A DNA stretch of 64,000 nucleotides, from assembly GCF_013315695.1 (NCBI RefSeq), contig NZ_CP054353.1. One strand, written 5' to 3'. Below, piece after piece: positions 24,134-25,138 of the stretch (positions are counted from its first letter, which is position 1; each line of letters opens with the position of its first letter). The notes under the pieces are model-generated. The model had not been told where the DNA came from, did not search any database, and saw nothing but the letters and a program-made list of their open reading frames with translations. A program made the position numbers and the translations under genes. The stretch comes from Escherichia coli (GTDB lineage Bacteria > Pseudomonadota > Gammaproteobacteria > Enterobacterales > Enterobacteriaceae).

Positions 24134-25138
24134 ATGTCAGGTATAATTTCAAGTGCAACAGAATTCTTCAATAATACACTCCATTCAAATCAATACGAAA
24201 TTAAAGATGCGAGCAAAGAAAAAATAAAGGATATATATAATAAATCGGTTGATTATGCAACGATGAGTAATCGCGCTGCGATTATTGCAAAAATAGATTT
24301 GTTTATTCAGAGAATCACCCATAATTTATGGACTGCAAGTGATAATAATGTTTCCTTAATTAAGCGAATAGATGCTCTCAAAAATTGGGTTGAGGAGTGT
24401 ATTGATCAGTGCACTAATGAGCAATTAGGTGATCGTGACTATATTTCTGCATTTGTGGATCGGGCGATTTTTCATTACGCGATGAATTTTGTTTGTAATC
24501 CAATGGAAAATAGCGATGTAACTCTAATAGACAAGTGTACTTTCGACGTAATAAATCATAATGGCCTTCCCTCCACGATTCAGCTATTTTATGATAAATC
24601 CTATTGTAAAGCACCTGTAGCGTCATTACATCTAAAAACAGTAAGCGAAGGCTTTTTAAATTTGGAAAATGCATATAATGTAAAGAAAGATACTCGCTTA
24701 AGACCCCTGGCCTCCCTTTTACTTTCATTTTCATATGATAGTGCATCAGCAGATATCATAGGAGCAGCAGAGAGAGTTAATGATGATTGTGAAAACTACA
24801 TAAAAAGTCAGATAAAAATATTATCTCGTCAAGTGATGAAAAAAAACCTGGCGGAGCTGAAAGACTTGATAGATAAAAAAGAATTGGATTTTAATGTAAT
24901 TCTGCAGGAGATGAAAAATCAGGCCGGAGAAGAAAAAGAAGACATCAAAAACATTACAAAAATGCAGGCTGCAGGTGAGACTTTAATTAAATTTATTCAA
25001 TCATTTGACCCGGACTCAACGGGACCAATTATAATTGGTAAAGATATGGATGACAAAAATATAAATGACAACGATCTAATTAACGAAGATATTATTAAGT
25101 TCATTTATGTCCTATTAGGTACTGAGTTAGAAAAATAA
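24134..25138 (+). CDS. AT-rich hypothetical protein occupying the K-12 yjbL-yjbM position as one uninterrupted ORF
   Basis: 334-aa ORF with low GC between zur and dusA; followed by a hairpin terminator. Function unknown. Confidence 0.65.

Follow-up and report, generated by a model that had tools for sequence, protein, structure and literature searches.

In this work we analyse the interval between zur and dusA in a stretch of 64,000 nt from Escherichia coli (contig NZ_CP054353.1 of assembly GCF_013315695.1, here called the window). An AT-rich open reading frame (ORF) of 334 amino acids (aa) lies there, at the place of the two short genes yjbL and yjbM of strain K-12. Very probably, the ORF is an intact accessory gene of the DUF2713 family that is restricted to E. 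coli and sits on a foreign cassette in the promoter region of dusA, and the K-12 copy of the same gene is a pseudogene created by slippage. The intact gene and the K-12 frameshift are both already found in public annotation.

The ORF (24134..25138, plus strand) starts with ATG and contains no internal stop. A first-pass annotation, made from the letters of the window, had described one continuous frame with its own terminator, and the ORF listing, the RefSeq coding sequence and a stem followed by a T-run at 25176-25205 bear this out. The G+C content (GC) is 0.31-0.36 along the ORF, compared with ~0.53 in the flanks; for the whole ORF it is 0.33, and 0.29 at the third codon positions (GC3). At the local composition a stop is expected per 12-13 codons, and the probability of 334 sense codons in a row is ~9e-13. 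In 2,000 shuffles of the surrounding 1.46-kb cassette the longest open frame was 224 codons, to be compared with 353 observed. Given the AT-rich composition and this maximum, chance is excluded as the origin of a 334-codon frame. The protein is identical to the RefSeq entry WP_001572188.1, a "DUF2713 family protein" of strain AF3. The gene order, dinF-yjbJ-zur(-)-ORF-dusA-pspG, matches the yjbL-yjbM locus of K-12, and zur and dusA also flank the locus in K-12, BL21 and O157. The ORF is a real, intact gene.

According to Pfam, residues 85-305 match DUF2713 (PF10897) at model positions 2-221 of 235, with 194.9 bits and an E-value of 2.2e-57 (gathering threshold 27 bits). The protein had initially been described as lacking recognisable motifs; it does belong to a defined family, although one without known function.

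In K-12 the locus contains two ORFs in different frames, of 84 aa and 246 aa (235 aa when counted from the first ATG), which are the two short genes that the first-pass annotation named. In a four-way DNA alignment both K-12 and BL21 are one base short relative to the intact alleles, and the alignment places the frameshift at position 24341 of the window. Comparison with a closely related intact allele, from strain MS 145-7, identifies the lesion in K-12 as the contraction of a run of eight adenines (A8) to seven (A7). RefSeq annotates each of the K-12 and BL21 loci, by its Prokaryotic Genome Annotation Pipeline, as one "frameshifted" DUF2713 pseudogene. The suspicion that the K-12 pair is a frameshifted relic was correct: yjbL and yjbM are the two halves of one pseudogene, which has lost one A from an A8 run.

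Among 5,426 complete E. coli genomes, a K-12-like sequence around the frameshift site is present in 2,028. An exact match to the A7 probe is found in 869 of them, and to the A8 probe in only 70. Nearly all other sampled K-12-like genomes have a span of 61 nt, corresponding to A7, and one has a span of 63 nt, apparently A9. Spot checks were consistent with the annotation. The K-12 lesion is thus common to roughly 36% of the genomes, a figure that, like the other population figures given here, is approximate and to that extent weakens the case, as it combines probe counts with evenly sampled rows and is not a full enumeration. A7 is an old inherited mutation and not a laboratory artefact. One A was lost from the A8 run of a class D allele (see below), and about a third of sequenced E. 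coli inherited the lesion. Further frameshifted DUF2713 copies, or copies disrupted by an insertion sequence (IS), are also present in the species.

The window copy had been proposed to be the ancestral, intact form of the K-12 gene. This part of the first-pass annotation does not stand. Clustering of 99 full-length database proteins gives four classes: A, to which the window belongs; B, 78% identical to A; C, at ~64%; and D, at ~48%. Class D is the common class and includes K-12, BL21 and O157. Between the window and the repaired K-12 gene the identity is 48-49% for the protein and ~68% for the DNA of the coding region, compared with 97-99% in the flanks. Intact class D proteins (328-340 aa, A8-bearing) are 96-98% identical to the repaired K-12 translation. 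The intact counterparts of K-12 are the A8 alleles of class D, and the window allele is a deeply divergent sister allele, not the ancestor of the K-12 gene.

The synonymous divergence (dS) between classes is 0.68-0.82. In the flanking genes, the dS between the window and K-12 is 0.08 for zur, 0.05 for dusA, 0.03 for pspG and 0.15 for yjbJ. At least four allele classes exist in E. coli, and they are mosaic. According to the identity profiles, class C is 100% identical to the window in the first 30 codons and ~77% identical after these, and class B has the reversed pattern; the classes swap segments by recombination. The window allele has a 15-residue insertion near the C-terminus and does not have the 10-residue tandem repeats of some common alleles. 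These repeats are in-frame units of 30 nt (approximately DATKDKLDNx) near the N-terminus, of which K-12 has one extra copy, BL21 two, and the window and O157 none. The variation is located at alignment columns 333-392 (K-12 ~2810-2840) and concerns common-type class D alleles. From shared protein accessions a recombination breakpoint at the locus was also suspected, but was rejected, as the sliding identity to both K-12 and a B2-like genome is 97-98.5% on both sides.

The ratio of nonsynonymous to synonymous divergence (dN/dS) is 0.37-0.64 in every pair with synonymous differences. The bootstrap interval stays below 1 in 17 of 20 pairs, including all comparisons between A/B, C and D, and in the other three, all among the closest, it marginally reaches or passes 1. 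A point of caution is that a dS of ~0.7 is close to saturation for Nei-Gojobori estimates. A dN/dS below 1 at a dS of up to 0.8 implies that the frame was kept over a very long time. The frame thus encodes a real but weakly constrained protein, under weak purifying selection.

The gene is carried by an insert that many genomes lack. In sister Escherichia and in the B2-like E. coli AZ153 a conserved 33-bp block, ATTGCCTGrTCGCATATTyGTTATGsTATAGTA, is uninterrupted, and in the window it is split by the cassette (Table 1). The gap between zur and dusA is ~110 bp in E. albertii and E. whittamii and also in three further Escherichia genomes outside E. coli. In E. coli, ~1,116 of the 5,426 genomes (~21%) are cassette-free with a gap of ~110-155 bp, and in two HH97-type genomes the gap is 218 bp. 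At least 80% of the window-type region (classes A to C) is covered in 363 genomes. Since the block is uninterrupted both in the sister species and in B2-like E. coli, parsimony favours a gain within E. coli. The ends of the cassette show no terminal inverted repeats and no target-site duplication.

Features of the locus are listed in Table 1.

Table 1. Features of the zur-dusA interval, in coordinates of the window.
Feature	Coordinates	Strand	Basis
zur (zinc uptake repressor), left flank, divergent from the ORF; 171 aa, starts MEKTTTQELL	23301..23816	-	RefSeq annotation of the syntenic locus
33-bp dusA-promoter block, left half, TTGCCTGGTCG	23935..23945	+	Alignment of the empty sites of AZ153, E. 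albertii, E. whittamii and HH97
Putative sigma-70 promoter TGGTCG-18-AATAAT, straddling the left cassette junction	23940..23969	+	Homology to the K-12 "yjbLM" promoter
AT-rich cassette, 1,456 bp, 33.7% GC: promoter, ORF and terminator	23946..25401	+	Missing from sister species and ~21% of E. coli
Shine-Dalgarno-like AAGGTG, 8 nt 5' of the ATG	24120..24125	+	Read from the sequence
DUF2713 gene, intact, 334 aa, allele class A; locus orthologous to K-12 yjbL+yjbM	24134..25138	+	RefSeq, Pfam, synteny
Position homologous to the K-12 frameshift, codon 70; GATAATAA in the window, without the slippery A-run	24341..24341	+	Alignment column 524; comparison of allele sites
Intrinsic terminator: perfect 13-bp stem, 4-nt loop, T-run	25176..25205	+	Inverted repeat; kept across allele classes
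33-bp dusA-promoter block, right half, TTGTTATGGTATAGTA	25402..25417	+	Same alignment of empty sites
dusA "long-type" 5' end, start codon to codon 35; att core ATGCTCGA at 25596-25603	25497..25605	+	82-84% identity to phage fragment
dusA (tRNA dihydrouridine synthase A), right flank	25500..26537	+	ORF listing, RefSeq

The low GC and the empty site in all sister Escherichia and ~21% of E. coli support a horizontal origin of the cassette, as the first-pass annotation had also proposed. In addition, the K-12 zur/yjbL region overlaps predicted alien DNA and is catalogued among the "promoter islands" bound by H-NS (PMC3661553). The window resembles these islands in its AT-richness and in its conserved upstream sequence; binding and silencing were, however, measured in K-12 only, on its own allele. 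Judging from its homologue in K-12, the cassette is probably bound by H-NS and largely silenced.

With its own putative sigma-70 promoter and intrinsic terminator the cassette (1.46 kb, 34% GC) forms a single-gene unit. For K-12, a constitutive sigma-70 "yjbLM" promoter with the sequence TTGTCG-18-AATAAT was mapped before yjbL in a table from genomic systematic evolution of ligands by exponential enrichment (SELEX), where "yjbLM" is treated as a transcription unit (PMC3946193). The leader upstream of the ORF is ~95% conserved between alleles. Its segment 24085-24125 (TATAAGGAGGACACGGTACGACAAAAAAGGT) contains a strong AAGGAGG ~30 nt ahead of the ATG and does not vary at all between classes that share less than 70% identity in their coding regions. 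A search of Rfam returned no RNA family above threshold.

DUF2713 forms 116 clusters, essentially all from E. coli, among 5.8 billion. Among 1.84 billion representatives at 50% identity there are 2 full-length clusters and a few distant metagenomic relatives. When the E. coli alleles were used to scan the GTDB species representatives, no close relative was found in other species (E. coli itself is uninformative there, its representative being apparently absent or without the gene). Two PHROG families of unknown function are matched, phrog_29005 and phrog_28007; they mirror the split YjbM and YjbL pieces and are probably prophage over-prediction. Carriage on plasmids was considered and rejected, as all tblastn matches in PLSDB were misfiled chromosomes or chromosome fragments. 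By their dS of 0.7-0.8 the alleles are far older than the divergence of the flanks, yet a reservoir of DUF2713 outside the species is not visible in current databases.

The 5' end of dusA is itself of a type carried by integrating phages. In cassette-bearing E. coli the dusA leader and first codons differ from those of B2-like strains and of all outgroups. A short-type DusA N-terminus, M-x-x-E-...-(Y/H)RFSIAPMLDW, is the general state in Enterobacteriaceae, shared by B2-like E. coli and other Escherichia. The long type (MHGN...) is derived relative to 20 outgroup taxa and is elsewhere found only in Salmonella arizonae and diarizonae, where a 3.5-kb insert between zur and dusA contains a 30-aa integrase remnant adjoining the long-type dusA 5' end. 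This Salmonella insert has ~44% GC and also contains a 419-aa ORF and a zinc-type alcohol dehydrogenase-like ORF. Leclercia and Intestinirhabdus have gaps of 3.1-3.3 kb and their own extended DusA N-termini, and beside the dusA of Intestinirhabdus lies a complete integrase that shares 59% identity with the one of phage mEp460.

Seven temperate E. coli phages carry, beside the integrase, a fragment of ~108 nt that is 82-84% identical to 25497-25605 of the window and ends at the attachment (att) core ATGCTCGA. The phages with a matching dusA fragment include mEp460, PhiR40_1, 1720a-02 and SKA5. This agrees with the elements with a dusA-specific tyrosine integrase, which are described as providing a replacement dusA 5' end (Farrugia et al. 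2015, PMC4482086); such elements have a pair of semiconserved 21-bp att repeats, with a remnant of the original 5' end at the far boundary. In ETEC4077 the DUF2713 gene is followed by a 105-nt dusA 5' remnant, then by a Panacea-domain gene and other foreign genes, i.e. by an element that is presently integrated (2754-3954). The locus is a mobile-element integration hotspot. In most E. coli, we infer, the long dusA 5' end was left behind by a dusA-specific element. The foreign AT-rich DNA of the cassette would have arrived at this hotspot, as dusA-specific phages and islands supply a 5' end of the type found in the adjacent dusA.

One possibility, which we regard as tentative, is that the cassette is leftover cargo of an ancient dusA-specific element, with the integrase and most of the rest deleted later. 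This would agree with the phage-carried, derived 5' end, with S. arizonae and diarizonae, where just such a decayed element is found, and with the activity of the hotspot in ETEC4077. A number of observations weigh against it. The cassette is found not at the att core but upstream of the dusA promoter block, with ~16 nt of ancestral-like promoter sequence between the cassette and the replaced leader. Even at E<=10, tblastn with the mEp460 integrase had no match in 23817-25520 of the window or in K-12, although it recovered the full Intestinirhabdus integrase and the 30-aa remnants in Salmonella. Between zur and dusA there is a single ATGCTYGA core (25596), a second core was not found, and the search there for a remnant of the short-type 5' end gave only chance blastn-short matches of 8-12 nt. 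The HH97-type genomes (n=2) combine a long-type dusA 5' end with an uninterrupted block, hence have no cassette, which suggests that the long 5' end and the cassette insertion were separate events. Finally, none of the phage genomes in INPHARED encodes DUF2713, and it was found on no plasmid. The link of the cassette to a dusA-specific element is circumstantial. Compared with the prophages and islands of this type (PMC4482086; e.g. mEp460), the window shares the element-type dusA 5' end, at 82-84% identity and with the same att core end, but an integrase, flanking att repeats and a remnant of the original 5' end are all missing from it, and its cassette is outside the boundary defined by att.

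The protein has a mass of 38 kDa, an isoelectric point of 5.0 and no hydrophobic segment (the maximal 19-residue Kyte-Doolittle mean is 1.04). The AlphaFold model, with a predicted local distance difference test score (pLDDT) of 71.6 and a predicted template modelling score (pTM) of 0.73, is mainly helical; residues 135-166 form its one small sheet, of three strands, and confidence is low for the first ~42 residues. According to these predictions the product is soluble, cytoplasmic and mostly helical. Foldseek found nothing at E<=0.001 in PDB and BFVD, the family profile found no solved relative among the PDB sequences, and NCBIfam gave no match. Weak Pfam matches over 21 family members showed nothing consistent. 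Among them, a HEPN (Apea-like) nuclease was rejected: the match was found in one of the 21 members, with E = 0.15 and 12.9 bits against a cutoff of 24.4 bits, and the residues that could form the HEPN Rx4-6H motif, R60 and H63, have a spacing of three residues and are not retained in distant relatives.

Five distant relatives (P0136, P0138, P0141, P0142 and P0144) were found at 20-25% identity. They have in common the motifs AKxDxFxQxIT--LW, DRxIFxF and LLxSxSxxSxxAD and a C-terminal -LLG, and some have an extra N-terminal domain of ~150 residues. A profile search of this distant branch added only one further protein. The relatives are located on short gut-metagenome contigs together with IS elements, a group II intron fragment, a KfrA-like gene and a PipB-like pentapeptide protein. 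A search for their hosts returned matches of the flanking DNA solely to IS elements and the group II intron. Opposite P0136 (426 aa), and separated from it by ISL3 transposase and Rpn-like fragments, is a 171-aa truncated paralogue of the P0136 N-terminal domain; the reading of this neighbour as Zur was rejected. P0138 adjoins a 311-aa pentapeptide-repeat protein (ADLRH repeats; 3842-4777) with a weak SopD-type N-terminus, and its contig also contains a group II intron reverse-transcriptase fragment and the KfrA-like gene.

As to the function, the product may act in genetic conflict, e.g. as a partner of phage or mobile-element proteins. We prefer such a role, with considerable reserve, because of the long-lived divergent alleles, their mosaicism, the presence/absence polymorphism and the frequent inactivation; old divergent alleles, mosaicism and dispensability typify conflict genes. 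Several results tell against it. No enzymatic or defence-domain signature was found for DUF2713, PADLOC-DB v2 gave no match at E<=1 for the window protein, one common allele and four distant relatives, and the family is encoded by no phage genome in INPHARED. The complete absence from ~21% of strains and the frequent pseudogenisation show that the gene is dispensable, and a gene that does little or nothing today would be just as compatible with this.

The main rival to a conflict role is that old foreign DNA has left behind a gene with no function, or almost none, that is drifting to loss, the window copy not yet having been hit. We consider this doubtful. It would account for the A7 frameshift in ~36% of genomes, the lack of the gene in ~21% and the other frameshifted or IS-disrupted copies, and it agrees with the relaxed constraint (dN/dS ~0.5), the lack of any known domain function or fold and the binding of H-NS to the region in K-12. 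However, dN/dS is clearly below 1 over comparisons with a dS of up to 0.8, i.e. the frame was long maintained, the first three shared motifs are kept in relatives at 20-25% identity, and a frame of 334 codons in DNA of 34% GC does not persist by chance.

A more specific version of the conflict role would make DUF2713 a new fast-evolving conflict gene, acting as a single protein in phage exclusion or against mobile elements, with an unseen helical fold and at least four ancient, recombining classes kept at a hotspot next to dusA by balancing or frequency-dependent selection. This version points to the depth of the alleles, a dS of ~0.7-0.8, which it puts at ten times that of the flanks and above the age of the species. 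In this full form we think it improbable.

It is quite unlikely that the protein is a type III secretion substrate, i.e. effector-like. The N-terminal ~40 residues contain much Ser, Thr, Asn and Ile and are predicted to be disordered, the relative P0138 is found beside a PipB/EspX-like pentapeptide protein with a weak match to the SopD N-terminus, and in K-12 both EspX5 and a SopA-family pseudogene lie no more than 20 kb away. Against this, the gene is common in E. coli lineages without a functional injectisome, including relatives of K-12, its immediate neighbours are housekeeping genes with no chaperone or secretion gene adjacent, the neighbourhood of P0138 is known from a single short metagenomic contig, and there is no fold similarity to solved effectors above generic helical matches. 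Least credible is a phase-variable contingency locus that switches by slippage in the A-run: A7, A8 and apparently A9 tracts do occur in the K-12-like subclade, but ~96% of it is fixed at A7 with A8 in 70 of 2,028, as expected from one old inherited lesion rather than from switching, a tract of 8 nt is short for efficient switching, and the window allele, with GATAATAA at the site, has no run at all.

Elsewhere in the window, dinF is broken by a 768-bp IS1 (21696-22463, with the InsA/InsB ORFs on the minus strand), flanked by the 9-bp target duplication GGTTTTGCC; in the otherwise near-identical strain AF3 dinF is intact. The segments ~39000-50000, ~56000-57000 and ~62000-64000 have no counterpart in the K-12 region compared and are probably strain-specific islands. 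In that K-12 region, a frameshifted SopA-family (yjbI) pseudogene is found between malM and ubiC (13485-15065), and EspX5 lies ~20 kb downstream of the locus (44565-45857). The malM-ubiC insert is missing in the B2-like AZ153, and the window (~13600-15400) aligns to K-12 there with 93-96% identity.

In the literature that we searched DUF2713 is not mentioned, and yjbL/yjbM are listed as a young operon of two genes without known function (PMC12218254). The window gene has the locus, the gene, the promoter region and the terminator in common with K-12 yjbL/yjbM, but the latter is an A7 pseudogene of another allele class, 48% identical in protein and ~68% in DNA. GenBank K-12 and much of the literature keep two genes, or an "operon", where one pseudogene exists, which is a minor point of annotation. 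It also extends to Pfam: PF10897 was built, with its 235 positions, on the truncated YjbM and spans only the C-terminal two thirds of the protein. The full protein has ~85 more residues at the N-terminus, the YjbL part, and this part, outside the model, contains the most conserved motif of the family.

The locus is a compact example of an accessory gene that, within a single species, occurs as an empty site, as a pseudogene made by slippage and common to many strains, and as several alleles with less than 50% identity to each other. It also shows that the dusA 5' end of most E. coli is of a type that integrating phages supply. The intact alleles, set against the natural null backgrounds of K-12 and B2, make DUF2713 a well-defined candidate for screens of orphan genes for phage-related or competition phenotypes.

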